Shown: piece by piece, positions 20,590-60,468 of the stretch | Layout: every line of letters begins with the position of its first letter | Position numbering within the stretch: the stretch's first letter is position 1 | Origin: Obrimoposthia wandeli | Taxonomy: Eukaryota | Assembly: GCA_977020255.1 (NCBI GenBank) | Contig: CDROCS010000295.1 | Coordinates: 62,001 to 126,000 of the forward strand | Direction: 5' to 3' | Length of the DNA stretch: 64,000 bases | Notes under the pieces: generated by a model | Told to the model about the DNA's origin: nothing | The model's input: only the letters and a program-made list of their open reading frames with translations | The model's database searches: none | Position numbers and translations under genes: made by a program

Positions 20590-21331
20590 TGTTGGGGTTT
20601 CTATATGAAACTGTTTTTCTAATATAGAACCTCTGAATGGAGGGCCCCAACGTGAGTTCTATAGACGCAGGACTTGTAGATGTTTGTGGCCTACTTAATG
20701 TTATGCTTGCCTTTCTCAATTCTTATCTGAAGGTTTGTTATTTCTAAATTTGAAGGGTCTATAACAACGCTGTCTAGTTGTAGGAAATCGTTTATTACTA
20801 AGCACACTAAATTAACACGTCTAATTACGTTCTAAAATTACAATACAATTCCTAAGACTTTCGCAAAGTCTCTACACAAGTGGGGATGATCCACGTATCA
20901 ATTTTATTTTAGGGTTGGTTGGTTACTAGAGTCTTTACTCTAAAATGTGACAAGGTTAAAATGGTGGGTTTTTGGAGAGCTGGTTGCTCTAAAATAGGGA
21001 ATGAGTTTAGAGAGCTGGTTGCTAAATATATGTGCTGATTTTAACCTTAACTTCGATTTTTATGTTCACTTTAATTTAGATGCACTTCCCAAACAATATG
21101 GTTACTTATTAAAATTCACGTTTAACTTTTAGATTCACTTACAAAAACAATCGGTTTACTTTATCAAAATTCACGGTTAACTTAAATTCGCTTTCAAAAA
21201 CAATCAGTTTACTTTATCAAAATTCACGTTTAACCCAAATTCGCTTTCAAAAAACAATCGGTTTACTCTATCAAAACTCACTTTCAACTCAAATTTGCCC
21301 CTCAACTCAATGTCACGAATGTTATTTAACA
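20590..21331 (-). mobile_element. LTR (probable 3' LTR) related to the LTR at 47214-49243
   Basis: The reverse complement of 20590-21000 aligns by eye at high identity to about 48790-49243, and both end AAACCCCAACA. The distal boundary (TGTT at 21331) is uncertain and no clear PPT was seen. Confidence 0.8.
21100..21290. repeat. Three to four degenerate ~55-bp tandem repeats within the LTR
   Basis: Unit aaaaacaatcggtttactttatcaaaattcacg(g/t)ttaac...aaattcgctttc. Confidence 0.8.
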
Positions 21332-21336
21332 TGTAT

Positions 21337-21762
21337 TTATACAAAATTGTAAAGATGCGAAGGATTAGGAAAGGAAAGGAGAGGAAAAGGAATTGTGTCA
21401 CTGTTTAATTGTCGATTGTGAGGTCGATGGTGGTAACTGGTCGGTTCTGCTCCTCCAGAAATAACAAAACCCGCTCCAAGGGTAATGCTGAAAATGTTGG
21501 AGTTACTCCGAAGTACAGCTCCAGTTGTTGAAAATGTTGAGGTTGGGACTTTGGCGGAATTGAGGGGCGCCGGGACTGTATCTCTTGTGGGTGTTGAGCC
21601 ACACCTTTCGAGCATACTGCCACGAGTGGCGGTCACGGCTAGATCGCCACACTTCTCGTACGTTGCGCTGCGCGTCGCGACGGCACATAGTGTAGATGGG
21701 GCATTGGCAGTGCTCGCCACCAATACAGCTGGTGGGTGAGCGGGTGCCCTTTGGACGTCCAC
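21337..21762 (-). CDS. Hypothetical Ala/Thr/Pro-rich protein in a GC-rich island of the cassette
   Basis: 141-aa ORF on the same strand as the RING genes; overlapping ORFs in other frames make the frame ambiguous. Confidence 0.3.
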   Translation of the reverse strand: MDVQRAPAHPPAVLVASTANAPSTLCAVATRSATYEKCGDLAVTATRGSMLERCGSTPTRDTVPAPLNSAKVPTSTFSTTGAVLRSNSNIFSITLGAGFVISGGAEPTSYHHRPHNRQLNSDTIPFPLLSFPNPSHLYNFV

Positions 21763-21775
21763 GGCAGTGAACCGT

Positions 21776-21961
21776 TCAATCGGCGAAGGGTGCTCGGCAC
21801 ATTGGGCATGTGATGTTGCCGGCGGGCCGAGCTTTGGCCCACATATAGAGGCACGCCTTGTGGAACCGGTGACGGCATCCGGCAGGGATTGCCGAGGAGT
21901 CCCGAACTCTGTCGAGGCACACCGAGCATATCATCAGCACAATGGTGTGTCGGTTAATCAC
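21776..21961 (-). CDS. Minimal RING-H2 (C3H2C3) protein
   Basis: CSVC-x12-CRHRFHKAC-x14-CPMCR; likely start at the internal ATG (MICSVC). Confidence 0.85.
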   Translation of the reverse strand: MINRHTIVLMICSVCLDRVRDSSAIPAGCRHRFHKACLYMWAKARPAGNITCPMCRAPFAD

Positions 21962-22253
21962 TTTTTTATTTGAAGTTTATATGATTTTTACCTTAATATT
22001 TTAACCTACCGAATTTTGTCTTTTCTTTGGGTATGTTTTTCGCATTTAAAGTATAAAAATTGTCTTTTGGGATTTCAGTATAATAATTACAATTTCAAAT
22101 AAACATCTTACATAAAAATGGTAAAGGTCTTTTTACAGTTTTATACAATTATGATTACAATTATGATTACAATTATGGTAGCTATTTTACCGCGGTATGC
22201 GATACACAGAGTTAGTTCATGATGTCACGTTTATGTCAAAAAGTTACCTTTGA

Positions 22254-22559
22254 TTATTGTTGGCTGTCGGGCTGGCCTGTGCGTCGCTCCTCCACGCAGA
22301 ACATGCACCAGCAGTCGCAGATGTCCTTCCAGCAGTGTACGATGGGTACCACTGCTTGAAAACTGTCTCGGTCGTATACGAAGTGTACCGAGAAGGATGC
22401 CCTGCACATCGGGCAGGTTGGGTAGTCGAGGGGTTTGTTGCTGTTGACAACTGGGATCCATGTCTCGAGGCATTGGACATGAAATTTGTGTTCACAGTTG
22501 TTTGGTTTGGTGTAGAGGTCCACGATGTTCTCGTAGCAGATGGAACATTCTCCAGACAT
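22254..22559 (-). CDS. RING-H2 protein with C-terminal CWK-x4-CWC-x-FC motif
   Basis: CSICYE...CEHKFHVQCL...CPMCR plus HCWKDICDCWCMFC. Confidence 0.9.
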   Translation of the reverse strand: MSGECSICYENIVDLYTKPNNCEHKFHVQCLETWIPVVNSNKPLDYPTCPMCRASFSVHFVYDRDSFQAVVPIVHCWKDICDCWCMFCVEERRTGQPDSQQ

Positions 22560-22619
22560 TGCTGTGAGAGGGGTGATGTTGAATTTGGGCTCAATTGAGG
22601 GCTGGTGGTTGTGTGATGT

Positions 22620-22919
22620 TTACACAAAAGTGGTCGAATCTTGTCGTTCTGCTGTACAGAAGAAACACCAACACTCTCTCAAATTCTTCCAACATAATAC
22701 CACCTGTACATCTACATCCTCTTGGTTGGGTTCTATTATGATGAACTTTGTGAATTGTCTTCTGCATACAGGGCAACGAGGGTATGTTGGATGTAGGAAC
22801 TCTCCATAAGTTCTGATCCATTTTGATAAACATTCCTCGTGGTGTAAGTGGTTGCAGGTATTGGGTCTTGTTCTTCGTTCAGTTATATCTTCCAAACATA
22901 TTGGGCATTCCTCTGACAT
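22620..22919 (-). CDS. RING-H2 protein with C-terminal CWK-x4-CWC-x-FC motif (paralog of 22254-22559)
   Basis: CPICLE...CNHLHHEECL...CPVCR plus LCWKNLRECWCFFC. Confidence 0.9.
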   Translation of the reverse strand: MSEECPICLEDITERRTRPNTCNHLHHEECLSKWIRTYGEFLHPTYPRCPVCRRQFTKFIIIEPNQEDVDVQVVLCWKNLRECWCFFCTAERQDSTTFV

Positions 22920-23046
22920 TCTAAATACGTGATGACAATTAATTTCTACATGAATTTTATATAATGCTACACTTGTTTATACAATCGCTTCTACATATTT
23001 CTACATATTTTTACACTCTTATTTATCTACAACCTCCTCTGACTTG

Positions 23047-23601
23047 TCATGTTTTGATGGGAGGCGGAGGTAAGGGTCGCAATTCCACTTCCTCTATCGT
23101 GGGTTCAGTACAGCATCGCAGTTCTTTGCATTTCCGTCGTATTCTTCGGCATATCTGACTGCCTTTCACGCACACGACTGTCAATAGAACTACTGCAGTT
23201 GACACTACGGCCATTACAATTAAAGCATTGACTGCAGTTATCCCGCTGTCTGAGGATTGGTAATCGTACTTTATTTTGTTGTTTGTCGGTTTGAGTGACG
23301 TCTCAATTGGTGCTTTTCGGTTTCCGTGTATTATGTCCGATTTTCTAATAAATCGTGGATTCGGATATTTTGTTTTTTGTCTAACGGGTATTATTATTCG
23401 AGATTTGAGATCCAGTGGAATCGTTCCCTTCACTCTTGTCCTCTCGATAATTGTGCTTTGGTTTCTGGAATCGAGCTCTTTTCCTTTCACTTCTGCCTTT
23501 TTTATGACTGCTTTTGACTTCTCGGAATGGCGTTTACTTCCTTTCACTTTTGCCTTCTTTATGACTGTGTTTGGTTTCCCGGAATTGAATTTGATGCTCA
23601 T
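23047..23601 (-). CDS. Membrane protein fragment (basic region, TM helix, Cys/Pro-rich tail)
   Basis: Hydrophobic ALIVMAVVSTAVVLLTVVCV followed by CRRIRRKCKELRCC...RPLPPPP; the frame continues upstream to a stop near 23700. Confidence 0.6.
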   Translation of the reverse strand: MSIKFNSGKPNTVIKKAKVKGSKRHSEKSKAVIKKAEVKGKELDSRNQSTIIERTRVKGTIPLDLKSRIIIPVRQKTKYPNPRFIRKSDIIHGNRKAPIETSLKPTNNKIKYDYQSSDSGITAVNALIVMAVVSTAVVLLTVVCVKGSQICRRIRRKCKELRCCTEPTIEEVELRPLPPPPIKT

Positions 23602-23945
23602 ACCTAGTCTACGAAATCGACGTGTCTGGTATCTTAGAGTTATATAGAATATTTCACCCGTTATTACTATGATTACGGTAGAGGTCTCTTTAGCATAACT
23701 GGAAATTCAGTTACATAGACATTCAGCATCATAATGTAGTACTAACATTTGGGTGGTATTGCGAAGTTGATTCCGTCATCTGGATTGGGACACGCCACTG
23801 TTACCTGGTCAGTTTCTAACAATCTGAAGAATAAATTAACAGAATTCCATACAGCTTTACGTCGTTTACCTGTGACCATAATCCTGTCAATAACTTTCCA
23901 GATGCGCTCGTCGTTAGGCAATATTACTGACTTTGTTCGGATAAT

Positions 23946-24242
23946 TTAAATAATCCGTTTCTTTTTTGATATTTTTATTCGTAGGTATAATACCTTTTCA
24001 TAATAGAATAGTATCAGTCGGTAGTAAAGTGTATGTTTGTCAATCTTTATTTCAATCTGGCGGATGACATACAATTTCTGATCGACATTTTCGGTTGCAG
24101 ATGTTTGTAGTTGAATGTCTACTATGTGATTCGTTTTTAGTAGAGGTATTTCTATGTATAACGCACGTATCGTATCTTGTCTCCATTTACTGATCATAAT
24201 ATCGTAACCAGCCTCAGTCGTGGTGATTTGTATGATCAGCAT
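23946..24242 (-). CDS. Hypothetical protein of the accessory cassette
   Basis: 98-aa ORF packed head-to-tail with its neighbours on the same strand; no recognised motif. Confidence 0.4.
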   Translation of the reverse strand: MLIIQITTTEAGYDIMISKWRQDTIRALYIEIPLLKTNHIVDIQLQTSATENVDQKLYVIRQIEIKIDKHTLYYRLILFYYEKVLYLRIKISKKKRII

Positions 24243-24250
24243 GATTCCTA

Positions 24251-25114
24251 TTATCGTTCGGTTCTGAATCTCAGGAACTTCTCAGGGATAACTAAAGTTA
24301 CTATATGTTCATATATCGTTGGCTGATACTCCGGTGCTGGTTCATTTATGAATGCTGGTCTTGGTATATTTGTGTCGAATTTTTGTAAATTCATTTGACC
24401 TGTTCGTCTTGTGAGATCGTGACGTGTTTTTTTTGATTTCAACTCGATCTTTGTACAACAAAACAAGATGAGCAATATTAATATTATGATTCCGATAATC
24501 AATGCCAGTATTGGATTAACCAATTCTAGAATACCATAACGTATTGTTTGTATCTCTTTACTTTTGATGGTTAATATTTTAAATTTATGTGTACTTTGGT
24601 TGGACATGTCACTGAGAAGTACTATTTTAGTTTGTCCAAATGTGTATCCTTCACATGTGACAACACTAACTCCATAATATCCATTTAGTGTTTTCATTTC
24701 TGTCGCGGGTATTATACATACTCGTTCTGGACACCCTTTCACACACATGATCATCACGGCTTTACTGTGAGACGTCTTGATTATTTCTTGGGTGTTGTCT
24801 AGATTTCTCAAATGTAGATTATATTCAGCTAGCGTCATCAATTCAGCTTTACCGATTGGAATGGCTTGTAGTACCAATCCAATTACTACTCCGTAGATCA
24901 ATCCTTGTGCAACAGTGCACAGGCCCTTGATTGTTCTTTTGCAAACAGTTTTGATTATTATTCGTTTGAGATAAATCTGTTTCTGGTTATGTCGTTTTGT
25001 CTTGGTTGTCTGTCGTTGCTTTGACATTTCTTCGATTCCGGTTTTCCGATAATCAACTGTACCGGTTTGCCTTGTATCACCAGCTTTCCGAATCCATTTT
25101 TGGCGGACAGGCAT
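24251..25114 (-). CDS. Type I membrane protein-like ORF
   Basis: Signal-like GLIYGVVIGLVLQAIPIGKA, ~100-aa Cys-containing ectodomain, TM ILALIIGIIILILLILFCC, and a tail with PAPEY and IYEHI. Confidence 0.65.
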   Translation of the reverse strand: MPVRQKWIRKAGDTRQTGTVDYRKTGIEEMSKQRQTTKTKRHNQKQIYLKRIIIKTVCKRTIKGLCTVAQGLIYGVVIGLVLQAIPIGKAELMTLAEYNLHLRNLDNTQEIIKTSHSKAVMIMCVKGCPERVCIIPATEMKTLNGYYGVSVVTCEGYTFGQTKIVLLSDMSNQSTHKFKILTIKSKEIQTIRYGILELVNPILALIIGIIILILLILFCCTKIELKSKKTRHDLTRRTGQMNLQKFDTNIPRPAFINEPAPEYQPTIYEHIVTLVIPEKFLRFRTER

Positions 25115-25320
25115 GTTTTATGTCCTTCCATCGTTTCGATTATCACTCTCTTACTTCCATACTCACGTGTTTTGATGACATCGCTGCCGAATACATACGT
25201 CGTACCTTTTGTATCCGCATCTTTTTGTATTTCCTTTACAATTCGTTTTCTTCGTCTGCATCCGGCGAACGTTGCTGATATTCTATCAAGTGTGCACTGT
25301 CGGTCAACTTCGTAGTCCAT
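24958..25320 (-). CDS. Hypothetical protein, probably a frameshifted upstream part of the cassette polyprotein
   Basis: 120-aa ORF overlapping 24251-25114 in another frame. Confidence 0.35.
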   Translation of the reverse strand: MDYEVDRQCTLDRISATFAGCRRRKRIVKEIQKDADTKGTTYVFGSDVIKTREYGSKRVIIETMEGHKTCLSAKNGFGKLVIQGKPVQLIIGKPESKKCQSNDRQPRQNDITRNRFISNE

Positions 25321-25699
25321 TTCGGAATTGATTCAGTAGTCTGTTTTGTGAATAATAGATCGCTTCATTCACTATGTTCTCCTCGATCCTTTCGTCTAGA
25401 TAAACAAGTACCTGGTTTGTTGGTCCGTTTGGTTTCTTCATTTTTACAAACTGGAATCTTTCTCTGTCGGTTCTTATGGATCAGAAACATTTTCTGATTA
25501 GCCAAACATCGATCAGTCCTATCAACACTAATAGCATCATCAGTGTCGGTGTATTGTACTGCATGATGTAGTTGTGGATTTATTTAAACCAGGAACTATT
25601 TCCATGGTTGGAGCCTATCTCTTGTGCTCCCGTTGTTGGCATTAGACAACTTAACAAGCCTAGTGCTAGCAATCTTCGTTACTGATAGCTGGGCACTGT

Positions 25700-27390
25700 T
25701 GTTGTAACCTCATTCATTTCTCGTTGTTGTTTCCGCCTTTCGGAGTATTTCTCTATTTCTCGAACGAGTAACGGTTTGAATTCCGTATCTGATCTATTCT
25801 GTTTGATGTAGATCATCGCTTCCTCCGGTGTATGACCATGGTACACCTATGGTAGGTGCTAACATTGTACTTTTTTCTGATATATCAGAACGCCATTTCC
25901 TTCTGTGACTTCGGCTTGGATTGTTTGAGTCAACTTCCTCAGGTATTGTTGTGCGTCGTTTACCTCCCGATTTGAAGCATGTATATAACGTGTAGTGTCA
26001 TCTTCAGTATTTTGACATATACTGATTATCTCGTTTTCGACTTCAACAATGTTAATCACTCGGTTGATACTGTGGAACTTTAATCCAGCTGTATCTATAT
26101 CTCCTGGGTGACATAGAAATACTTTCGGCATTATCTGGGTGATTTTGTCGACTCCTGCTAAGAATAATCCGGTCAACGATAGTGATTGGAGGAAATTATT
26201 TTCCTTTGGATCCTCGGGGATGTCATCCATCCGTATCTGTTCTTGCAACAGGAGTTGATAATTTGACAATTGTACCAAAAAATTAAGGTTTGGATTCACG
26301 ATACTTCGTCTTTCTTGTAGATATTTCAGCGCTTCTAGTACCTGCATTCGTCTACTCTTTATTAGATATGCTAATACCAAGGTTGCTGATCTAGAGATTC
26401 CTTTCTGACAATGTACCAACACTTTTCCTTGGTTTTGGAGTTCTTTGTAAATTATCTCGTTTGTTTCTCCGAACCATTCGAGAAGATTAGCCTCCATTGA
26501 GTCTTTCACTCTTAATGTCATAGCTCTGATTGTCTCATTGTAACATTGATCACATATGTTATCCCTTTTTCCAACAGTTTCTTTTTGTCTATTGTGTCTT
26601 CCACATTTCCGAGGTATAACATATCTTGAATTATCTCACTCATTGGTGGCATCAATTCTGACTCCTCAAGTTTTAGTCTTTCTAATCGCTTCTCTATTTG
26701 TTCATCTATGATGAATAATTTCGCCAGTTTCTTTCTTCTCAGCATTCGTATCGCTGGAGAGATATTCATCTTTGTCTCTGATGTCTGTTCCTTTGGTAGT
26801 TCCTCTTCCGACTCGGTCTCTTCTGCAGATTTAATTCGCCTTTCTTGTATATTCTGTTTCATGAAGTCTATGTTTCGTCTTTTTCTGCTTTCTTTAGCGA
26901 ATTCAACCTCCACGGTTCTTCCGAATCGCTCTATTATGTTATCTTCGGATTCTGTTGACTCTGGATTGCTGCTTTCAGGTTCACTGTCTTGACTAGACTC
27001 GCTCGAAGGGTGTTCTGGTATGTCTGTTTGAACTAAAATTAATGAAGGGGTTAGAATAATTGGATTGACTGGTCCTGAGTCTCTGTGAATCGGATACAGT
27101 ATTACACAATCCTTAAGTATCTCAACTTGGAACTGTGCTCCATAGCACATGACGATTGTTTCCAATTTACCCATGATGGACAATCAATCGAAATAGGTGA
27201 CATTCAGCTTAGATATCGGTGTGTTCGCATAATTCACTAAATTGAATCGTATCTCGGTCGATAATGGCCATCGATATTTTAGTAAAATTATAATTTCGTC
27301 GTTTATCGATGTAATCACACTTGGCGCGGATGATACTATTTCAGCATGATATTTTGGCTGGAATGAGTTTGTCATTTGTTCTCTGATCAT
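25700..27390 (-). pseudogene. Tandem dual-specificity phosphatase (catalytic DUSP plus degenerate second DUSP domain), disrupted
   Basis: PMSEIIQDMLYLGNVED...GITYVINVT (ORF 26518-27183) frameshifts into VLVHCQKGISRSATLVLAYLI...RSIVNPNLNFLVQL (ORF 25859-26521). Second domain: ITQIMPKVFL...INRVINIV...GVLIYQK...HTPEEAMIYIKQNRS, lacking the HCxxGxxR motif. ORF 27184-27390 is in frame upstream through a single TGA. Confidence 0.9.
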
Positions 27391-27433
27391 ATTGATTCTT
27401 TGTGGTTTATTTTTTTTATTCTTTGTGGTTTAT

Positions 27434-28165
27434 TCTGGACTTTGAGTGAAGCCAATATGTTGTTTTATGTTTAATAAATATTTTGAAAAATAATTTTGTC
27501 TCGTATTTTGTTTTTTTTTCCTCTAAATTATATATTGATCTGACCGATTTTTCTCCTCTAAATTCTAAAACTGACATAGATATTTATCATGTAGTAATTT
27601 ATTAATCTAAAATCTTTCTTAAAAATAGTAGTAATATTTGAAATCTCGTCTGCGAAAAGCCGCCGGGGTCAATATGGATTCTCGTGGTCTTCTCTAACCA
27701 CTTTTGAGATTAGTGGGAAAATTTTTAAAAAATATGGTGGGGGGGGGAGTACCCCTCTTTCTTCCCCCTTTGAGTGGGATGAAGACACACATACACGAAA
27801 TTTCACTCCACACACATGCACGAATTTTCACTCCACACACATGCACGAATTTTCACTCCACACACATGCACGAATTTTTACTCCACACACATGCTCGGTT
27901 TTAAAGGACAGTAGGGGGGTACCCCCCTTCCTTCCCCCTTTGGGTGGGATGAAGACACACATACACGAAATTTCACTCCACACACATGCACGAATTTTCA
28001 CTCCACACACATGCACGAATTTTTACTCCACACACATGCTCGGTTTTAAAGGACAGTAGGGGGGGGTAGAAAATCTTTCTATACACCAGCACGAAATTTC
28101 ACTCCACACACATGCACGGTTTTAAAGGACAGTAGGGGGGAGAGGGTGTGTTGATTACACCTACT
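27434..28165 (+). mobile_element. Orphan Polinton right end (direct-orientation copy of 37800-38347)
   Basis: Near-identical to 37800-38347 from gagtgaagccaatatg through the 25-bp cacgaaatttcactccacacacatg repeats, ending ACACCTACT; no matching left end or TSD found upstream. Confidence 0.9.
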
Positions 28166-29433
28166 CATACATGCTAGGCTGCATCAATTATGGATACAAC
28201 CCTATTGTAAGAATCCTCTGTCTTTCTTAACGACGGTTTAATCAAATATATCGCCATTTGTATTCTCGATTTTTAAACGCGCAAAAAATCGTCCCTCAAC
28301 GACGATTCGAGAAATTTCTTTCTCATTGTGCCCAGCTTTTATCGACTGTTTTTTTACAGTTTTGATCATGAATACGGCAATTAATTAGTTAGAATGGTAA
28401 ATATTACTTCTAAAGACGCCATTTAGGTATTCAGCTGCCTATTTAACATCGCTTTATCACGCACTTTACTACCGAATTATATATTTATTTCAATCCAGCA
28501 ATTAAAGGGGCATAATGAAAACATGGACAGAAATTAATATGTTGAGAGCTTTTGTTGCAGTCTATACCTTTGTCTTTCAGATACACTTTCTATTTTTAGA
28601 GTTAATTAAACGACATATAATTTTTCTTCAGCCTTATTAAAAAATAAAGAATTTAATTTTAGATTTGAAATATTTAGTGACATCATTTTTCTCAACTCTA
28701 TTTGCAGATCCAGTTTTCTCAACAGGCCCATATTCACAAAGTGCAGTAAAACTGGTCAGCAAAAATATCATAATGCACTAAAGATATGAAGAAATATTGC
28801 ACCGGAAAACAAAATTATGGAATCACTAGTTTGTCTCAGAACTTTTCATTAAAACATAAAATTGTTAAAATTAGATAGATCGTTAATTTCAAAATAGTAT
28901 ATATTAAAAGCACTTTATACAAGGTGTATCGAAATACAAATCATTAAAGAAAATGCTACATAACATATATTTCTTTTATACATTCTTCTCAATTTCATTT
29001 AGATATCTCTTTTCCTGATTATTCCATAAATTTTATCATGTGGCGGGGCGTTATCTTGTTGAAATTTAGGCCATAGTGCACTTCTAAAATATGCACAATG
29101 GAGTATTTTGTAATTCTTCTTCAATTTTGGCTCTTCGGGAAAATATGGTCATTCGCATGTAATCGTATTTTCAGTTGATTGTCCTCTAAAGATAACTTAA
29201 AAATTATTAGATAAGAGTAGGTGGATGTGTCCGGTCTAATCCATACCCCCTCCCCCCTACTGTCCCTTAAAACCGTGCATGTGTGTGGAGTGAAATTCCG
29301 TGCAGGTGTGTAGAAAAAATTTCTACCCCCACCCTCCCAAACACTCAAAAAAATAATTAACTCCATATAACACCCTCCATATAACACCCTGACATTATGT
29401 TCACTGAATCCTGATGACAATACGCTATATAGC

Positions 29434-31612
29434 ATGCCTAAGGATAAGGATTTAAAATTCAGGGATTGGGCAAAATGCATACCCGTGGAATTCAGGGTGT
29501 ATGCAGATTTTGAGTCAATTTTAGCATTGCTCGACCAGTATGAGAGTATTCACCTACCGGCTTCGGCAGGACTACTATTCTTAGGCCCCAATATTACCCA
29601 GTATCATAAATTTTCCGGTCCAAATTGTATTTTAGATTTTATGTTAAAATTAGAGGAATTAGGAACAACAATTGTCAAACCGTGGTATGATCTCAATGCT
29701 CATCAAGCAATGATCATGACAGGCATAGACTGGGTTAATTTTAATTCTTGTAGATTATGTTATTTGTGTGGAACCCAGTCTAAGTTAGTCAGAGATAACG
29801 ATCATGTTACGGGGCGATACTTGGGAGCGGCGTGCAACCTTTGTAACCTTGGCCGTCGTCTCCCTAAAAAACCACGCATTCCCATCGTGTTTCATAACCT
29901 CAAAGGATATGATTTGCATCATATACTTAAATATGCGTTGGGTACATTAAGCTCTTGGGAAATTTCATGTATACCTCAAACTTCAGAGAAATATTTATCT
30001 TTAACTGCATATACTGAATTCTGCAGTTTAAGATTCATAGATTCTCTGCAGTTTTTGAGTGGTTCTTTAAAAAATCTAACGGCATCTTTAAATGCATGGC
30101 CAATTACACAGTCAGTGTTTCCAGCTTCGGTTAACGATAAGGGGATTTTTCCGTAAAAATTTGCGAAACCTTTTGCAGATTTAGAAAATACAACTGAAAT
30201 CCCACCCATAACTGAATTTGAGGGTGTAAGTCTTCAAGACTATAATGAGGCCCGTACATTTTGGGCGAATAATTGTCGAAATCTTTTAGAATATATGCTT
30301 TATTATATGAAGTTAGACATTTATCTTTTAGCTGATGTTTTTGAGTCCTTTCGTGTAAAATCTTTAGCAGAAGATGGGCTAGATCTCATGCATTTCTTTA
30401 GTTTACCTGGTCTTTCATGGGCAACAGCAATAAAAACTCTTAAAATTAATATCGAGTTACTGCAAGATCCCGCGATGTATCAAATGTATGATTATGGTAT
30501 ACGCGGTGGAATGACTTTGTCAACAAACATCATGTTGTCAAAAATCAATCCATGGAGATTCTGTACATCGATATTAATAATTTGTATGGGTGGGCGCTTA
30601 CTCAACCTCTACCTCATGCCAACTGTAAGTGGGTTTATGATGAGGAAGAGTTGAATAATTTGATGACAGATTTGGCTACTGTTGATACAGTTTCATCCGA
30701 CGTCGGCTATTTGGTTGAGGTTAAAAATCCCTCCCAATGTGCATGATAAATTAGATGATTTTCCAGTAGCGCCTGTTCATCAATGCCCACCTAATTCAAA
30801 GGTTAAGAAATTATTGTTAACCCATGAAGACAAGTTGAATTATGTTGTGCATTGGCAGCTTCTTCAATTCTACTTAAAGTTGGGAGCGAAAGTTACTCGA
30901 ATTCATCGTGCTATAAGCTTCAGTCAAAACTTTGTGTTTAAAGACTATATTGAGAAGAATTCAAGAAAACGTAATTTGGCCACTAGCAAATTCAATCGAG
31001 ATTTTTACAAGTTAAAAAGTAATAGTCTCTTTGGAAAAACTGTAGAGGACTTGCGGAAACGTATTTGTCTACCGTTTACCAAGTTATATAGGTCAGACGG
31101 TTTTATACATTTCTAAACTCAGAATGTACGAGCTTCAATACCTAGAATTAGAGAAATATCGACAAGAATTCAATTGTGAGATCAAAATCGCAGCTGGGGA
31201 CACTGACTCTTTCTTTTTAGAATGTAAAAATGTTAGTTTAGATAATCATTTATTACTGGCAATGTTTAGGGACAACTTACTAGATACCCATAAATATTCC
31301 GCTAACCATCCTCTACACTCTATGAGTTTAAAGGACATTATCGGGAAATTTAAGGATGAAAGCGAGGGACAGGTTTCGTATGATGATTGTATTTTCCTAC
31401 GCCCTAAATGCTACAGTTTACATGCATCTAATAATACATGTTCAATGAGAGTAAAGGGTGTGGGAAGAAACAATCTTACACATGAGGCCTACCGGAAAGT
31501 TTATGATACTGGGTGTATTGAAAGCGTTGAGCAAACTAGATTTATTTCAAGAGCCCATCAACTGTATTTCCATAAATCAACCAAAATCGCTTTGAGTAGT
31601 AATGATGACTAG
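29434..31612 (+). pseudogene. polB: Protein-primed family B DNA polymerase (frameshifted, N-terminally truncated)
   Basis: VYADFES (ExoI), CYLCG...RDNDHVTGRYLGAACNLCN (Zn/EndoVII-like insert), FHNLKGYD (ExoII), YMKLDIYLLADVFESFR (ExoIII), YIDINNLYGWA (A), KLKSNSLFGK (B), GDTDS (C), spread over ORFs 29434, 30295, 30552, 30682 and 31124. Confidence 0.95.
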
Positions 31613-31929
31613 CGCTTTTGGGTAGAAAAGAATGCTAGCCTGGCTTATGGACACTTCCGAATTTAAACGGTTTTCATTTTATTTTATTTTTTTTAGTTTT
31701 GTTTTTTTTAATTTTAGATCCCTATGGCACCTTGACTCTAACTTTTTGTTATTTCAATACTTTTTTAGGTTGGACCTTATCTTTGCTGACATATCTCATT
31801 GTGATGTTGTGATTAATAAATGTATTCAAAAAATTTGTCTTATGTCTTTTATTATTTTACCCTTATATTTTTAGAGATTTAAAAAATAATTAAAAATAAA
31901 ACATTAAAAATATTTATTTTTATAACACA

Positions 31930-32193
31930 CTAATCGTTTTGCAACGATAACCATAAAATACATAAATGTCCACAGTTTCTCGTCGCAGGATCCTGATATT
32001 GTATCTTGTTGTAAAATACTCTTATTCGTCCTTTTTGAATAGTCGAAACAAGTTTGTGTGGATAATACATTGCAAGTGGATCAAATACATGTATTGTCCA
32101 CTCTCTAACATAAATAGCCATCCAATGTTCTCCTGGTAAATTCGAAGTATGAGTATTGATAATGTAACCTCCAGATTGAAAAAATGGAATCAT
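31930..32193 (-). CDS. Polinton adenain-like cysteine (maturation) protease
   Basis: NTHTSNLPGEHWMAIY...FDPL...YQDPATRNCGHLC (His/Asp/Gln/Cys catalytic set). Confidence 0.9.
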   Translation of the reverse strand: MIPFFQSGGYIINTHTSNLPGEHWMAIYVREWTIHVFDPLAMYYPHKLVSTIQKGRIRVFYNKIQYQDPATRNCGHLCILWLSLQND

Positions 32194-32311
32194 ATCAATA
32201 GGATAAACTCCATTGAATTTATCACCCAGGACCTTCTCTGCTGATTCTTGTACTTGTTTTGAACTAAATAAAAATTAATAAATATAAATTTAAAATATGT
32301 CTTACTCCATT

Positions 32312-33500
32312 CTATAATATGACAGTTCTGTTTTTATTGATTTGTATTTCCGAATCAAATACTCCGTAAATAAGCACCGTAGTAGGATGTGTTAAAGCTG
32401 CATTGAACTTAATTTCTAGTCGTAAATTTCCATCCTTTGGTAGTTGACATTGGTTTATATCAAAGTCTGGTGCCAAAACAAATGTGAAGAACGGGCAGCT
32501 GCTTTTAAAGTCAGTGAAAGAAATACCATTGTTTATATTTTTATCTAGTTGACCCACATTCCGAATAATAGATTGGGTATAAGCCAAAGCATAAGCGTCA
32601 CCTTCGAAATCTGTTTTATATGTTTCGCGATAATCAGTATTTCTTGAAAGTGTCACTGAACCAACATTAAGATTGTCAAATTGAGTTGCATCTGTCGTAT
32701 AATTTCCTAGAAACTTTGCAGTTTTTTGAAAAGAAATTAAAATGAATTTCGGTAATCTTACATCACCAAAAATTTGATCCTTATTAAAAGCTTGTGTACC
32801 CGTACCTAAAGAATAAGATATAAGTTTAGTTTCTCTAATAGGATAACAAGCATTGTTTTTTTCCATTCCTATATTATGTGCCATTAAAACTGATTGCTCG
32901 GTTTTAACTCTTCGAACATACAATTTTGCATCCAAAATATCAAGTCTAGGTTTTAGAACGTCAAAGAAAAATTCCATTTATTACGTTTCAAACGAAGATG
33001 TACATTAACACCAAGAATTAAATATTGCGGTTGTTCAAAGAAATTCAATCTCAAAGACCCACACATTTCGTAAGCTTTAGAACCTGCAATCCATTCTTTG
33101 CGAGTTGCAACAGTTTTATCATAACCAATGGTTGCCAAATTAGTATTTTGAGTATCAGTACTATAATTCAAAAGACTTTCAATCAAAGCTTTATGAGCAT
33201 AGGAAGAATTTCCACCTTCAATTTTGACATTATTAAGAGTAACAATGGCATCATTAAATAAAGAATTAAAGGGATAATTTACAGGTGTTACATCGGCATT
33301 TTCATCTAAATTAGTACCATCCCGATTTAATACTTTTATTTGAACATAAAGCAAAGTATCATTCAAATCTAAATACTCGCTATTGGAACCATTAATATTA
33401 AATTCTAAATCGGTTAAAGTGGTTCCTGAAACTGAGTTAACTAGGAATATTTCTTCAAAGGAAGCATTATCTACAACAGTGGAAGTGGTTTATCAAAAAT
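32312..33500 (-). pseudogene. Polinton major capsid protein (double jelly-roll), frameshifted
   Basis: LEFNINGSNSEYLDLNDTLLYVQIKV, NYPFNSLFNDAIVTLNN, LDAKLYVRRVK, RLPKFILISF, GNLRLEIKFNAALTHPTTVLIYGVFDSEIQI. Confidence 0.9.
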
Positions 33501-33529
33501 ACACAATTCAGTTTTGGCGCAACTCATTT

Positions 33530-33860
33530 TGCAAATATTGTTCCTTCAACATTCTTACGTTTGTTTATATTGATTTTTTGCTTCTTTTTACTTTTAAATC
33601 CACTACCTCCTTGGCTTTTATTTGATTTACGTTTTCTAATCAAATTAGCAACTTCAGGTAAAACATTATCAAGTTCATCAAGCGCATGCTTCTTAAAAGT
33701 TGGTATTAGTTTATTGTCTTTAGATGAAAGGTAATCCTTTCATAATTTTGATATAAATCGCCTGAGTCTCTTTAAAAGACGAAAGGCAAATCTACCTTAT
33801 GTTCTAAGCCAGCCAGATCCATATTGTTTACCAACAAAATATGGTAATTCTCCACCTTGT
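33530..33860 (-). pseudogene. Polinton small basic QxGxG protein (PZ-like putative core/membrane-active protein), disrupted
   Basis: Minus-strand GKQYGSGWLRT*GRFAFRLLKRL...KSQGGSGFKSKKK located between mCP and MCP. Confidence 0.55.
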
Positions 33861-33879
33861 TGGCTTTGTCTATAAGCTT

Positions 33880-34915
33880 CAATTATTGCTGGATTCGCCA
33901 TTTTGTTTTCTTAAATGTATTGTTAAACTTGTCTTGGCCTCGTGCGTGAAATCTATTAGTTGTCCGGAATCATCTCTAATATTTACTTCAATATTGTTTA
34001 TAGAAAAAAGAGAAACTGGAAGATACATTGGCTGATCTATACACATACCAACAGCGTCCCCATCTCTAGTTTCATTTTTAGATATCTATATTGTTCTCAA
34101 AAGTGGAACTCGCTGTCCTCCTACAAGCGTTGGTTCTATTAAATTAGTATAAATATATAAATGATTAACAGCATTTAAAAGTTTTGCCTTATTTTTAGCT
34201 TTTATGGTTTTTATTGTATGGGTTTCAAAGGTATTTCTGTTTAAACCAAGGTTTTTAGCGAGTTTATCATCAAATGAAACTCGTTTTATATTGCTCTTTA
34301 CTGTAAACGTTATTTTACCATTTTTTAATGTTTCACATTTATCCAAATATTCATTACATTCCTTCTGTATTAATTTACAGAAATTCACTTCACTGTCTAT
34401 TTTATAATCTTTTGAAAACATTTTCAGTTCCACTACAGTCTTTGGTCTCGTTTCAACTAACAACACTCTTACTACTCTACTAGGAACATTTTAAAACATT
34501 TTAGATGAGACAATATTAGATCTCTTCATACCTACTACATGTCCACTATCAAAACCGAATTGAAGAGCTTCTCTTCCAGATTCGAATATAATTTGAATAG
34601 GTTGAAAATGTTTTGATCGATTTTTAAATCTGACTTTGTTTTTTTTCATATATTACTTTCACTTCTTTATCTATACAATTGTAAATCAAACCCGATCACA
34701 ACTTTAGTTGTTTTTTCATGATCAACTTCTTTTGTAAACGAAATACGTGAGTTTTTTCTGATAGTAATTGGAGAATAATAAAAAGAAAATTCGGTTAAAG
34801 CCGCTTCCCATTCTCCTTGGAGATTTATAGGATTTCCCAATCGATAATAAAGCTACTAGCGTAATTATCTGGTTGAGTCTTCGGACATCCGTTACTAGGT
34901 AAAACCATATACATA
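33880..34915 (-). pseudogene. Polinton minor capsid (penton) protein, frameshifted
   Basis: N-terminal MVLPSNGCPKTQPDNYASSFIIDWENPINLQGEWEAALTEFS, central LYIYTNLIEPTLVGGQRVPLLRTI, C-terminal NNIEVNIRDDSGQLIDF. Confidence 0.85.
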
Positions 34916-34919
34916 GACT

Positions 34920-35830
34920 TCATATTATATTAGATGCTGATATCCAAGTTGGGTCTGAATAACCATGCCATTTAACAAAGTATTGTTTATGTTTACGGGC
35001 ACCCTTAGATTTTAATATTTTTTGAATACGGAAAACGCTAGGTTTATTTGATATTACTTGTAGTTCTTGCTCGTAAAATTTACCGTGAACGATATTATTG
35101 TCAGCATCTTTAATAGTATACATTATTGGATTACTCTTTTAATCAATTTTACTTATACAAAATATTTCATCGCTCCAATTCTGATTAAAGTTTTTAATAA
35201 ATGGAGTAGAGCTAATTTTCGAAATTCGAACATATTCGTTTTTCTTATATTTAGCTTTTTTAATTTTTACTTTTTTATTCCTGTTCATCCAAATGTCCAT
35301 AGAGTTTTTATTAGTAACATCAACAGGTCTCATTCCCTTGAGACCTCTATGTTCAGAGTGATTATATGCATGTATTATTTTAGGTAAAACTTGGATCCAT
35401 TTTTTATTTCCTTCTTTTGTGAAATACTTTTTATCAAATACCTAAATCAGTTTGCACATTTTGTGGAATGTCCAATTTTAATATTTCTTTAATGGCTTCA
35501 AGCATAGCTAATGAAGACTTTGCTTTAACTGGAATTGCACGAGCAAACCTGCTAAATACATCAATACATGTTAAAATATATCGATATCCCTTATTAATGG
35601 AAGAATATGGGATCATCTCCATCAAATCCATTTGCCATAAATTATTAGGACTGCTGGTTTTGTAAGCTCTAGTTGGAAACCTTCTTCTCATCGGCTTGTT
35701 CAGACTGTAGGCTAACTGGTCGCTCAGCCATTTCTGCGTTTTCTTGTAATTCTGTTTTTGTTCTTTTTGCTAATTTTGAAACTCCTGTATAGCCAATTGG
35801 ATCTTTTGGATTGAACCATATCTTCTCCAT
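34920..35830 (-). pseudogene. int: Polinton retroviral-like integrase with C-terminal chromodomain, frameshifted
   Basis: WFNPKDPIGYTGV, LWQMDLMEM...YRYILTCIDVFSRFA, VQTDLG, VRISK...NWSDEIF, VHGKFYEQELQ, QYFVKWHGYS. Confidence 0.92.
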
Positions 35831-35916
35831 TACAACAATTTGAATAGAAAGAAAATTTAGGTTTAGGTAAAGAAGGGCTAGCACCCATATCTTTAGCTGA
35901 TTTTAGAAATAATTGT

Positions 35917-36246
35917 TTATGAACGTGTCGCAGCTATAATACTACTGATAATTGAAGCAACAACTGGAATAACAGCCCCTATGAAACCACCATTCTGTTT
36001 AAGAGTAATATTTCGTTTTCTTTTTTTACTTTTTACATTAGCAATATCTAGAAGAGTTTTTCTATATTTCTTTAATATATTTTTCCGATTTCCAACTTTT
36101 ACTCGACCCAAAACTATATTATATAAAACTTCCAATAAATCATCTACAACAAAGGATGGAAATGCTTTAAGAATAATCATTCTCTTATTAGAAGAGGCTT
36201 TGACTAAAGCTTTAAAATAGGGTATGCTTCTTTGTATTTTCTTCAT
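35917..36246 (-). CDS. Conserved Polinton small protein with QNGG-F motif and amphipathic C-terminal helix
   Basis: Basic N-terminus, LEVLYNIVLG, then LKQNGGFIGAVIPVVASIISSII; resembles an adenain cleavage site followed by a hydrophobic peptide. Confidence 0.7.
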   Translation of the reverse strand: MKKIQRSIPYFKALVKASSNKRMIILKAFPSFVVDDLLEVLYNIVLGRVKVGNRKNILKKYRKTLLDIANVKSKKRKRNITLKQNGGFIGAVIPVVASIISSIIAATRS

Positions 36247-36261
36247 TTTAATAAAAAAGGT

Positions 36262-36417
36262 TCAATTTAAATATTGTTTATATTCGAAGCCATTTAAGTT
36301 TTTTTTATTTTTAACTACAGATTTGATTAATTTTTTCACTTCTTTTTTCTTAATGATTCTTTTTTTTGATTTCTTAGATTTTACTTTACGTTTTACTATC
36401 AACTTAGTAAAAGGCAT
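36262..36417 (-). CDS. 51-aa lysine-rich protein (not in the ORF track)
   Basis: MPFTKLIVKRKVKSKKSKKRIIKKKEVKKLIKSVVKNKKNLNGFEYKQYLN, sitting between the ATPase and the QNGG protein. Confidence 0.45.
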   Translation of the reverse strand: MPFTKLIVKRKVKSKKSKKRIIKKKEVKKLIKSVVKNKKNLNGFEYKQYLN

Positions 36418-36424
36418 TGCGAAT

Positions 36425-37077
36425 TTATTTTTTATAATTGTTCTCTATTTGTTTATAAACAGTTACTCCCTTAGAATTAAATATGTCTGTTAAAACACGT
36501 AAATCATCTGGGCAAGCTTGTGTAAAGTCAATAAATATATACCCATGTGCTTGTTTAGCAGCATCGTGGAATGAATCAACTAGAAAGTTCTTATTTTGAG
36601 GAAATGCCTGTCTGGCCACAAAATCAACAACTGTTTGATCTCTAGGATTATTAAATAAAACTAAGTAATGTACATTAAGATTTCTTGTTCTATGGTGACC
36701 TCCTTGGTGAAACAGATTTTGAGTGATAAATATAACTGTTACTTCACGATGTCTTGCAATCTTTGTAAATAAATTATTAAATTCCGATTCCTTGTTAGCC
36801 TCCTCATACAAATCATCAATTATTACTACATCTTCTTTTTTCAATCTTTCACACAAATTTGCATCAAATCCTTCAATAAATTTTATACCCTTCAACTTGC
36901 AAACTTCATTTTTGTTAACCCGCTTTCCCCTCCTCCACCATGATGCCAATAAATATTTTTGAAACTAGATTTGAAAAGAGATTCATTTTGCAATAATTTA
37001 CAGACGAAATGTGTCTTTCCACTTCCACTAGGGCCAACTATTTGAAATACAGCATTATTATTTAGTTCCATTGCATA
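36425..37077 (-). pseudogene. A32/FtsK-like packaging ATPase, frameshifted near the N-terminus
   Basis: MELNNNAVFQIVGPSGSGKTHFV (Walker A, upstream frame), VVIIDDL (Walker B), ITQNLF...RTRNLNVHYLVLFNNPRD. Confidence 0.92.
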
Positions 37078-37108
37078 TACTCTTTCATTTTTAATATTGT
37101 TTATGTTA

Positions 37109-37381
37109 TCATAGAAGTTTCCTTATTGAAATGTACAATGTTAGAGCTATTGTAGATGAAATACAAAAATTAATTAATGAATATTTGGCTATAATTTTAT
37201 TTATTTGTGTACGATTTCTAAATTCTCGAATAACGTGTGATCTAATCAATATTTCAATGTTATCTCTTGTTATATCATTATTTTTTAATTCTGATAAAAT
37301 TTCTTTACCCCTAATTTTTCCAGAAAATATTTCGTCGGCAAGCCGATCCACTTCATTGTCTCTATTTATAGTATTATTCAT
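37109..37381 (-). CDS. Polinton hypothetical protein with C-terminal hydrophobic segment
   Basis: ATG-initiated 90-aa ORF co-oriented with the ATPase; tail YSLINFCISSTIALTLYI. Confidence 0.4.
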   Translation of the reverse strand: MNNTINRDNEVDRLADEIFSGKIRGKEILSELKNNDITRDNIEILIRSHVIREFRNRTQINKIIAKYSLINFCISSTIALTLYISIRKLL

Positions 37382-37530
37382 TCAAAACAATAAGTTTAAA
37401 CGGGTTTGTTTATAGAAAAGATAACAAGATGTAATAAGATATATTTTCTAAAATCAAATCAACAATGTTTGGATAATCAAAATATTTCAATCCCAATATC
37501 ATATTAAAGAGGCATCAAATTATACTAGTT

Positions 37531-37743
37531 ATGAATCCTGTGAAAATATCAAAAGTGCAGAATAAATATCTCATCGAAATTTTAACAACAACTGATATTG
37601 ATCAATTGAAAAATATTTTGGGATTTTACATTCCTGATTATGTATATGAAAGAAATTGTTTCCAGCTTGAAACTGATCCCGGTGTGGATTTTAAAGATGA
37701 TCAAGGATATTTGATTGCTCCAATTCTAGATGAAGAACTATAG
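37531..37743 (+). CDS. Polinton hypothetical protein
   Basis: ATG-initiated 70-aa ORF inside the element near its right end. Confidence 0.35.
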   Translation: MNPVKISKVQNKYLIEILTTTDIDQLKNILGFYIPDYVYERNCFQLETDPGVDFKDDQGYLIAPILDEEL

Positions 37744-38439
37744 AATATCTCAATACGTCTCAATGGATATTTTGCTGATGACGGGAAAATGCAGGCTTCT
37801 CTGGAGTTTGAGTGAAGCCAATATGTTGTTTTATGTTTAATAAATATTTTGAAAAATAATTTTGTCTCGTATTTTGTTTTTTTCTCCTCTAAATTCTAAA
37901 ACTGACATAGATATTTAACATGTAGTAATTTATTAATCTAAAATCTTTCTTAAAAATAGTAGTAATATTTGAAATCTCGTCTGCGAAAAGCCGCCGGGGT
38001 CAATATGGATTCTCGTGGTCTTCTCTAACCACTTTTGAGATTCGTGGTAAAATTTTTAAAAAATGTGGTGCTGGGGGTACCCCCCTTCCTTCCCCCTTTG
38101 GGTGGGATGAAGACACACATACACGAAATTTCACTCCACACACATGCACGAATTTTCACTCCACACACATGCTCGGTTTTAAAGGACAGTAAGGGGGACC
38201 CCCTTCTTTCCCCTTTGGGTGGAATGGAGACACACATACACGAAATTTCACTCTACACACCTGCACGAAATTTCACTCCACACACATGCACGGTTTTAAA
38301 GGACAGTAGGGGGAGGGTGTGGATTAGACCGGACACATCCACCTACTGATAAGATTTAAAAGTACGTGGTACGTTCAAATGTCCCGGGCCTAACAGAGAA
38401 ATAAGAATGTAAACAAATATATTTTTATTTAATGACAAC

Positions 38440-46440: not shown

Positions 46441-47213
46441 ACTTTCGATTTTTCATTTAAGCAATAGACAGGTTTTCTAACTTTGAATTTAAGCAAATGA
46501 GATTCTCTAATAAGCCGCGGCACTTAACATTGAATTAAAACGTGTTGATAATGAAAAGACTCTAATTATCTGTGGCTTTTTAATGTGGTGCAGCTAGTAG
46601 TGCAAAACCAGGGTAACCATTCTTAGTTTGAAATAAAATATAAAACCTTCATATATTAATGACCACAGGCGATCATCATAATTTATGAGTTCTAACACTC
46701 TTTCCCATAAGCCTTTAGCGTTGTGCGTCATTGATTCCTTTGATACATAAAATCGGCTCTTAGACTTGTTGAAGACGAAATAATGAATACACACCAGTCT
46801 TTCTGATTGTTTTCAACTTTTAGTGCAACCATGCCCTTCATTATATCATTGCTGAATCAAATTGTATCTTTAATTGTACAACAAGTCTATAAAAGCAGAG
46901 TTACGGTATTGAATCGATCTAGCATACACATTTTTGGATATTGTTTTTACTTCATCATCGCAGTGTATCAAAGTTCGGCATTTGAGACCATATAACAACG
47001 TAAAGCTAAATCCTCATGTTTATTCGATCTAGAAACTCGATTACTTTTGAGAAAGTTTGTGCAAATATATCAATTACCTTTCATATGAGTTGGACATTCC
47101 GTTCAAATCGCAGGTCTACTAAATGAGATTTCATTTGAATTGTCATTTGGATATTTTGTCAATTAGCTTTGACAGTTTGAACATATGAAATTGGGTGTGG
47201 AATCTTTTACAAA

Positions 47214-49243
47214 TGTTAAGATTAGGTTTTAAATAATATTAAAATAATTAATCTATTTATATTAAAATAAAAATCCTTGAAAGCAAGGTTATAATTAAAA
47301 ATAAAATTAAATTATAAAAGTAAATTCTTAAGAATAAAATTAGCGGGAAAATATTAGGACCACGAAGGTCATGTGTAAGCATGTGAGGTATATAAAGAAG
47401 TTAAAGTTAACCAAAAGGGCCCCCGAAAACGTTATAGAAGGTTAATTAAGAAACAGAGAAACGGAATTAAGAATAAGAAGAATTTGATTAAGAAGAAACA
47501 GAAGCAGGAAGAAAGGAAATCAATTAGCCAGAAATCAAATTGTCCATTAAGTCTAGACGGATTATAACGGCAGGCCTCAATCCCACGAGTCCATTAGCAG
47601 ACAGAGACAGTCGAATCGGATCGCAACAGGGCCACGATTCGTATAAAAAAGGAATTGGCTACAATTCATTGCACAACAAAAAAGAAACCAAAAAATATAA
47701 ATCAGAATTGTCAGTTAGATCGAAATTGATAACTTGATTTTCAGAAAAAGTATCAAAGAAGTAACGTGATCTCAGAAGTTCAGACAGACAGAATAAATCG
47801 AAATTGATAAAGAACTGTAGAAGACAAGCCGTGGAAAGGTTATAATTTATATAAAATTGAAACTGAAAAGAGTTTTAGAAACAGGAAGCAGCTAAGCTAT
47901 ATTGCTCAGAATCGACAAGTGGCACCGGAAGGAAAACAGCTATTCCAAAGGAAAGGCCAAATCAACGAACTAACAGAGATCGGAAGCACCTCAACCATCA
48001 GAACAATCAGGCAAGGATCTTTTGCCAGCAACTGACTTCGCGGATCAACACCAGTACTCAAATAAAGGTATAAAAAGACTAAGGAAGTAAAGTATCATTG
48101 TTAATTTGAAATTTTGGGAATATTTGATAAAAACTAAAGAAGTAAAATATCATTCTTAAATTGAGATTTTGTAAAGGGTTTTGATAAAAACTAAAGAAGT
48201 AAAATATCATTCTTAATTTGAGATTTTGTGAAGATTTTGATAAAAACTAAAGAAGTAAAATATCATTCTTAAATTGAGATTTTGTAAAGGGTTTTGATAA
48301 AAACTAAAGAAGTAAAATATCATTCTTAATTTGAGATTTTGTGAAGATTTTGATAAAAACTAAAGAAGTAAAATATCATTCTTAAATTGAGATTTTGTAA
48401 AGGGTTTTGATAAAAACTAAAGAAGTAAAATATCATTCATAAATTGAGATTTTGTAAAGGTTTCGATAAAAACTAAAGAAGTAAAATATCATTCATAAAT
48501 TGAGATTTTGTAAAGGTTTCGATAAAAACTAAAGAAGTAAAATATCATTGTTAAATTGAAATTTTGGAAATATTTTGATAAAAAACTAAAGAAGTAAAAT
48601 ATCATTGTTAAATTGAAATTTTGGGAAATTTTGATAAGAACTAAAGAAGTAAAATATCATTCGTAAATTGAAATTTTGTGAAGATTTGATAAAAACTAAA
48701 GAAGTAAAATATCATTGTTAAATTGAAATTTTGTGAATATTTTGATAAGAAGTAAAGAGAACGAAAACCGAAATTTACACCGTGAATAAACTAATTCCCT
48801 ATTTTAGAGCAACCTGCTCTCAAAAATTAATTCATATTTTCGAGCCAACAGCACTTCCAAAAGATCTACTACCTAAACCTTGTCGCATTTTAGAGTAAAG
48901 ACTCTCATAAAATAAATCACCCTAAAGTAAAATCGATACGTGGTTCATCCCCACTTGTGTAGAGACTTACAGAAGTCTTAGGAATTGTATTGTAATTTTT
49001 AGAACGTACTTAGACGTGTTAATTTAGTGTGCTTAGTAATAAACGATTTCCTACAACCAGAAAGCGTTTTTTAGACCCTTCAGAGTAAGAAACAACAAAC
49101 CTTCAGATAAGAATTGAGACAGGCAAGCATAACATTAAGTAGGCCACAAACATCTACAAGTCCTGCTTCTATAGAACTCACGTTGGGGCCCTCCACTAAA
49201 GAGGATCTATTTTAGAACACAGTTTCATATATAAACCCCAACA
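47214..49243 (+). mobile_element. 5' LTR (~2 kb)
   Basis: TGTT...AACA ends (left boundary inferred), TATATAAA near 47389, several AATAAA; the 3' part is homologous to 20590-21000 and is followed by the PBS. Confidence 0.7.
48071..48755. repeat. ~58-60 bp tandem array (about 11 copies) inside the LTR
   Basis: Unit aaaactaaagaagtaaaatatcattcttaaattgagattttgtaaagggttttgata with variants. Confidence 0.95.
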
Positions 49244-49251
49244 TATTAAAT

Positions 49252-49269
49252 TGGTGCCCCGAGTGAGGA
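49252..49269 (+). promoter_or_regulatory. Primer-binding site, elongator tRNA-Met-like
   Basis: TGGTGCCCCGAGTGAGGA is complementary to a tRNA 3' end ...UCCUCACUCGGGGCACCA, as recalled for metazoan elongator tRNA-Met; it lies 8 nt after the inferred LTR end. Confidence 0.75.
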
Positions 49270-49361
49270 TAGCTCGTCGGACACAGCGACTTCACGTAGA
49301 ATAAGAAAGCAAATTGAGAATAAGTTACAGAAGAGGAAGATATCAGCAAATTGAGATAAGA

Positions 49362-50177: not shown

Positions 50178-50717
50178 ATTGAATAGGTTAAGTCGAGTGA
50201 CGAGTCCTCGAATTAAATAAATTGATATAAGAAATCTTAAAATAAGAATTGTGAAATAAGATAAAAGTAATAAGTAAATTGATATCGTAAACGAATACAT
50301 AATTGATAAAACAACGAATAATAAAAAGGGACCAGCGTTTAATACTAGAAGACAAAGTCAGTTTCCACAGGAAGAGATAAAAAATAATAATTTAAGCCGA
50401 ATTGAACAGGTTCCTCAAAAAGATAAAAAAGTAATAGAAGAAGCTAGAATCGAAGAAAACGTATCAGAAAGAGACGTAAATCAATCAGCAGTTTCAACCG
50501 ACAGTTTTGATCTGACTGAATTGTTTGGTGAAATAAACCAAGAAGAAATTGAAATTATTGAAGTTCAAAACCCAGAAGAAATTGAAATTGCCAATCCAGC
50601 AGCGGTTGAGGAAGTTCAATTGAATAATATTGAAGAAATAGTTGAGGAGGACATAGCTGAAAATATGGCTCACGCAGGAGCTCAAGCAGGTAATAACCCA
50701 GGAATAATGTAGGAGGA

Positions 50718-54640: not shown

Positions 54641-54642
54641 AA

Positions 54643-60460: not shown

Positions 60461-60468
60461 GGTTTAAT

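Follow-up and report, generated by a model that had tools for sequence, protein, structure and literature searches.

What are the three small RING-H2 frames that follow one another on the minus strand at 21776-22919 of a 64,000-nucleotide stretch of the Obrimoposthia wandeli genome (contig CDROCS010000295.1; the whole stretch is called the window below)? The preliminary description took them for stand-alone mini-genes. Our analysis shows that RING-A, RING-B and RING-C (A, B and C) are instead cargo of a Burro-like Ty3/gypsy LTR element of ~22 kb, in which they are the final three genes ahead of the 3' LTR.

In the window, A (22620-22919, 99 aa) and its paralog B (22254-22559, 101 aa, in the same frame as A) are intact. 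The third frame (21776-21934, 52 aa), described earlier as an equally complete mini-gene, is what has been left open of a truncated longer gene, C: the remnant of C occupies 21405-21934, with a premature stop at codon 53 (21776-21778) and a change of frame further downstream. In other copies C encodes 165-180 aa, and it is full-length in 65 of the 96 copies with a recognizable start. Uninterrupted frames are thus found for A and B and not for C. Complete C3H2C3 sets, on the other hand, were described correctly, with eight ligands in each of the three and Pfam zf-RING_2 scores of 34.7-40.7 bits (cut-off 27.3).

Five copies of the element, each read over 50 kb, measure ~22 kb from LTR to LTR, and the LTR pairs of three of them are 94-99% alike. 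A Pfam scan, which covered seven ORF pieces of one copy, identified Gag, CCHC, the fusion glycoprotein PF24664, BIR and RING-HC on the gag side, followed on the pol side by protease, RNase H, integrase and then ORF2 with two DSPc stretches. A, B and C lie downstream of ORF2, in the same sense and directly before the 3' LTR. The start 23-mer of A has 4,425 exact matches in the genome (reversed control, 0), the C motif pattern has 3,270, and A finds at least 150 matches at 87-100% identity in its own genome (1.35 Gb); the exact and close matches of A identify the trio as genes of a high-copy mobile element.

The copy in the window is dead, since its ORF2 (23050-27230, minus strand; 1,426 aa with two DSPc phosphatase stretches in one natural copy) is broken into four frame segments with 15 stops in the aligned pieces, the stretch from C to the start of the 3' LTR has been lost, and the element is interrupted by Polinton pieces. 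The last ~435 bp of the 3' LTR remain (20591-21019, minus strand). The neighboring gene is therefore disrupted, as had been noticed, but two intact genes of 100 codons beside it are unremarkable: at the lesion rate of ORF2 we would expect ~2.5 lesions in A and B, and the probability of none is estimated at ~0.08 or higher.

In the window, the 5' half (47213-61542, plus strand) and the 3' half (20591-27414, minus strand) of the trio-bearing family are oppositely oriented, and each of them ends at Polinton pieces. As their LTRs are only 88% alike and the flanks lack a target duplication, the halves are probably two copies joined by rearrangement. Inverted repeats at 20638-20915 and 48919-49195, considered as termini of a DNA element, were rejected as such, being LTR ends of these oppositely oriented parts. 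Other features are a decayed Polinton/Maverick (27434-38350) with frames like those for PolB, protease, capsid, integrase and ATPase, one of whose ends is present in an additional copy (27434-28150); a MULE-like DNA transposon (57240-60460) that is inserted in the RT region of the 5' half and has inverted ends of 500 bp; and a further IAP-type RING-HC frame (61578-61922, plus strand) that adjoins a Polinton piece (61543-62500).

A and B are diverged paralogs, as proposed, with 40% identity over 93 aa, and both carry CWK-x4-CWC-x2-C. The extra motif, however, is not limited to these two genes. In A it forms a Cys4 module, C76-x6-C83-x-C85-x2-C88 (22656-22694, minus strand), in B it lies at 22296-22334 (minus strand), and intact copies of C have a matching C-x5-C-x-C-x2-C, as far from the RING as the motif in A and B; in the window the C module (21692-21727, minus strand) is decayed and downstream of the stop. 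A, B and C are one paralogous family with a common plan, a RING-H2 domain, a predicted beta-hairpin and then C-x5/6-C-x-C-x2-C, and their origin by tandem duplication is supported. The eight RING ligands, W34, R53, F56, C76, C83, C85, C88 and R92 are invariant in an alignment of 14 rows. Among full-length copies (81 of 96 for A, 69 of 108 for B, where the 108 include some A starts picked up by the B pattern, and 65 of 96 for C) none of the 24 RING ligand positions and none of the 12 Cys4 positions is replaced in at least three copies, compared with 143 of 326 other positions (Fisher P=0.0016 for Cys4; this value is a guide, as the copies are related and the sets mix ranked and position-ordered samples).

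The regions of A, B and C that follow the RING, which are short pieces, had no Pfam match at E 0.05. An HMMER profile scan yielded 5,634 RING matches, and the Cys4 module was found at the right distance in none of the top 150. Close homologs outside this genome were absent among one candidate near A in length, 13 candidates for C and 3,247 longer proteins examined with the profile. In the ESM Atlas, A matched generic RING clusters, including Nucleocytoviricota clusters, and the post-RING part of C had no match at 0.9. Sequence and fold searches of the PDB matched the RING only (structural matches cover model residues 1-67); being filled by the RING, the fold searches do not bear on the newness of the module fold. 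AlphaFold2 models of both A (mean pLDDT 77) and C (mean 62) contain the RING, the beta-hairpin and a helix, with block pLDDT over the Cys4 region of 57-64 in A and ~48 in C. These results support the Cys4 module as a conserved module of no recognized family, in line with the first impression, and its spacing would fit a zinc site. A lipidation role is disfavored by the rigid spacing and the lack of a hydrophobic or terminal context. The motif did not turn out to belong to a host RING family, to reflect simple retrocopies or to vary among copies, any of which would have spoken against the initial interpretation.

We calculated dN/dS between the window's own subfamily and a younger one (at least 150 matches at 97-100%). 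B and C each have a ratio of 0.39 (bootstrap 0.25-0.86 and 0.29-0.54, respectively) and A has one of 0.96 (0.48-2.11), compared with 0.10-0.22 for pol and 0.10-0.73 for ORF2 windows. Shared variants have a lower dN/dS than private ones in five of six gene/subfamily sets; since similarity to A or C determined the ranking of the sets, the within-set dN of these two genes is lowered. B and C are under purifying selection, and all three genes were functional while the element replicated; the ratio of A does not demonstrate constraint outside its ligands. The dS climbs from 0.11 in A through 0.29 in B to 0.95 in C, against 0.15-0.21 in pol, so that the 3' end is mosaic or older, and no part of the element's 3' 10 kb varies more than C. 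Tandem origin and a virus-like setting, both suggested earlier, agree with paralogs in a virus-like LTR element, but the accompanying idea of diversification under host conflict is not supported by these ratios: dN/dS between subfamilies gives no support for positive selection on any of the three genes. A and C may have been in an arms race.

The same data largely refute passive carriage of a captured host or viral sequence that is unexpressed and retained beside 3' cis signals. Base composition could be read in this way, since over 21405-22919 the GC content of B and C (53-58%; C-ending codons make up 53-57% in B) is far above that of A (40-42%) and the background of the window (~30%). Nevertheless, a dN/dS of 0.39 at a dS of up to 0.95, together with cysteines and a GCAG|ATG junction fixed over diverged lineages, makes such carriage very improbable.

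In an LTR transcript, each downstream cistron has to be made accessible to ribosomes separately. A YAG stands just before each of the three start codons: 1 nt before the ATG of A (22921-22925; 95 of 95 copies), 2 nt before that of B (22562-22566; 94 of 99 copies) and directly before that of C (21935-21938; 92 of 96 copies, lost in the window), all on the minus strand. This suggests that the sites are 3' splice acceptors and that the proteins are made from spliced messages. Across 17 upstream haplotypes of C (compared from the ATG, with no gaps), nothing is fixed apart from GCAG and one T. Position -3 of C is a C, which is a poor start context under the Kozak rule. For A and B the whole upstream region is conserved (4 and 7 haplotypes, respectively), so the AG of these two genes carries less weight than the one before C, and start context may account for part of its conservation. 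In flatworms, according to the available part of PMC12582326, operons occur and the same acceptors are used by cis-splicing and spliced-leader trans-splicing; both routes are therefore open here. The three sites depart from the full UUNYAG acceptor that the same text reports for parasitic flatworms. No joint at the three AG sites is among the joints listed for four sequencing runs (kind unknown, one sample). By pattern, no spliced retrocopies of A or C were found, and four B matches are variants or deletions. One copy (L113, positions 1-1814), in which the polyprotein with BIR, RING-HC and protease is joined in frame to RING-B, was rejected as a spliced copy, as it arose by a microhomology deletion.

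The arrangement of A and B could also be explained if they formed one read-through protein, or if their constraint came from an overlapping frame. They are in frame with each other, the spacer is 63 nt including the stop in all 40 copies with both genes intact, and its 20 codons are open in 39 of these 40; yet all three spacer differences between the subfamilies change the in-frame residue. Starting with an ATG at codon 4-5 of A, the -1 frame (22231-22908, minus strand) extends for ~225 codons through A, spacer and B; it is open in the majority of copies in each subfamily and broken at 22591-22593 in the window. Synonymous shuffles gave P 0.004-0.02 for its openness over A and 0.06-0.21 over B, with control genes near expectation. 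On the other side, shared variants are not enriched for -1-silent changes, three of them stop the -1 frame, no selection was found on it at the amino acid level, and it has no Pfam family above the cut-off; moreover, it is one of many frames examined. We regard both versions together as very unlikely.

A, B and C are likely to be small ubiquitin ligases. E2-binding RINGs are characterized by a hydrophobic residue between the first two cysteines and an Arg after the last one (bioRxiv 10.64898/2026.03.11.710994, partial text). On sequence both features are present in all three: I7 in A, I7 in B and V5 in C at the E2-contact position, and R53, R53 and R47, respectively, at the linchpin position. 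E3 activity would be the natural reading of these residues. Dominant-negative or adaptor RINGs, which would bind E2s of the host or other RINGs as partners (among them the BIR-RING protein that the element itself encodes) and ubiquitinate no substrate, could look similar, as A and B consist of almost nothing but RING and Cys4, with no long substrate arm, and A is relaxed outside its ligands. However, non-equivalent replacements in at least three copies are absent at the linchpin Arg, the helix Trp and the first-loop hydrophobic position of all three genes, and we consider this alternative unlikely.

The end of C points to a possible partner. A SIM-b-like core, T-I-D-L-T, is encoded at 21417-21431 (minus strand; untranslated in the window copy), and T[IV]D[LI]T ends C in 16 of 22 lineages (93% clusters, identity down to 56%). 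Column conservation is 0.94-1.0 in this core and 0.38 at the two residues before it. Both sides of the midpoint-rooted C tree include the tail, which one large clade and one further lineage lack; the most abundant C lineage is without the core. By copies, it is present in 20 of 65 full-length C genes (absent in 45) and in 5 of 16 in a position-ordered sample (absent in 11). The pattern, which was widened after the motif had been noticed, has an estimated chance of 0.0005-0.011, and in its widened form is absent from the last 30 residues of 150 other RING proteins. The tail is a single motif with T as its first residue, and it resembles the VIDLT/VDLT SIM-b cores given for PIAS and RNF4 in the available part of PMC3901395. 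Binding of SUMO by the C tail is thus a prediction.

The trio could alternatively act on the element's own products, in turnover or trafficking of Gag, Env, ORF2 or a ubiquitin-like segment. Burro polyproteins are described with a Ubi2/SUMO-like motif and ubiquitination-linked domains (PMC6431247, available part), and mainly purifying selection would suit a stable partner. The variability of C (dS several times that of pol) and the gain and loss of its tail speak for a changing partner instead. A sister Burro-like family of the same genome (at least 150 matches at 95-100%) also counts against it: it has another 3' cassette, with an exonuclease-like ORF (by eye) and no RING, and the RING pattern was absent downstream of integrase in all eight copies read. 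The only RING match in the 12 sister-family stretches is a decayed insertion of the trio-bearing family. As the sister family spreads without the trio, the trio is not essential for Burro-like elements, a point that also weighs against the explanation favored below. A role confined to own products seems distinctly unlikely. A non-autonomous subfamily consists of deletion derivatives that lack ~8.9 kb, i.e., pol and most of ORF2, and keep gag-env and the RING trio, with one common junction in three copies; retention of the trio there speaks for the favored explanation, but could be due to cis signals near the LTR.

We therefore favor, as a fairly probable explanation, that the trio comprises paralogous accessory genes, most likely small ubiquitin ligases made from spliced subgenomic messages and directed at host proteins that restrict the element. 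The genes share ancestry and stand between ORF2 and the 3' LTR in thousands of copies, and their RING ligands, E2-contact hydrophobic residue, helix Trp and linchpin Arg have been kept over lineages, which would indicate E3 activity. The Cys4 module might hold a third zinc and, with the hairpin and the following helix, provide a substrate or dimer surface, much as zinc fingers flank some host RINGs. Splicing to the YAG in front of each ATG, either in cis from the leader of the 5' LTR or in trans with a spliced leader, would give access to each cistron, and the ligases would then remove or modify restricting host proteins. More tentatively, ancestral C may have recruited SUMOylated silencing proteins via its SIM-like tail, which some lineages later dropped.

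A bolder version, which we think doubtful, holds that the RING-Cys4 family is expressed like retroviral accessory genes and that one of its members is a SUMO-targeted ligase that undoes SUMO-dependent chromatin silencing in the manner of ICP0, gained and lost among competing subfamilies. Dedicated anti-silencing proteins are, to our knowledge, sparsely documented for animal transposons. In flies, piRNA-guided silencing reportedly depends on SUMO (10.1101/533091). If true, this would be an ICP0-like counter-defense inside a transposon; if the proteins are ordinary E3s for the element's own products, they are a modest addition to Burro anatomy. Being short, the three proteins lend themselves to expression and assay, and ready-made variants, among them lineages that have the SIM-like tail and lineages that lack it, are supplied by the thousands of natural copies.

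Among known systems, the RING clusters of Nucleocytoviricota and baculovirus IE2, PE38 and CG30 are likewise short RING-only accessory proteins, often in several paralogs; unlike them, the trio is carried by a retroelement, and the Cys4 module was in none of the top 150 profile matches. RNF125 (C2HC), TRAF6 and LNX1 also have a small zinc-type module directly after the RING, but the C2HC and TRAF fingers differ from the C-x5/6-C-x-C-x2-C spacing of the trio. A further comparison is with the SUMO-targeted ligases ICP0 and VZV ORF61 of alphaherpesviruses (PMC3174244). ICP0 orthologues are among the best viral fold matches of the A model, over the RING and the following strands. The RING of ICP0 and ORF61 is of the C3HC4 type, and these proteins are much longer and have several SIMs; the SIM-like tail of C, for which SUMO binding is a prediction, is lost in major lineages. 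VZV ORF61 combines an N-terminal RING with a C-terminal SIM, as does long-form C with its SIM-like tail (bioRxiv 10.64898/2026.03.11.710994, available part). With an identity of 16-29%, the likeness is one of analogy, not homology.

The closest system is planarian Burro/GYPSM1. Its LTRs, Gag with CCHC, env between gag and pol, BIR and RING-HC before protease, pol and thousands of copies, as given in the available part of PMC6431247, are shared by the element described here, which also has the gag-env-BIR-RING-PR-RT-RH-IN order. At ~22 kb it is smaller than Burro/GYPSM1 (>30 kb), and we have filed it as Burro-like and not as one of Burro1-4 for this reason. Burro/GYPSM1 elements are further characterized by MATH, BCL2-like and ankyrin motifs, and the type of element would suggest a planarian host. 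3' RING-H2 genes and phosphatases are not among the features listed for Burro/GYPSM1 in that part of PMC6431247. B-IAP of Burro1, which is reported to protect planarian stem cells (as cited in the available part of PMC13465017), has a RING-HC unrelated in type to the RING-H2 trio. In the available parts of the literature on Burro, planarians and gypsy accessory genes (including PMC6431247, PMC13465017 and PMC8532177) we found no 3' RING-H2 cassette; an earlier description is possible. Burro-type elements are already known for apoptosis and ubiquitination domains, to which a 3' cassette of small putative ligases with an unrecognized zinc-type module adds a further layer. The present analysis contributes the shared Cys4 module, the probable splice acceptors and the lineage-variable SIM-like tail.
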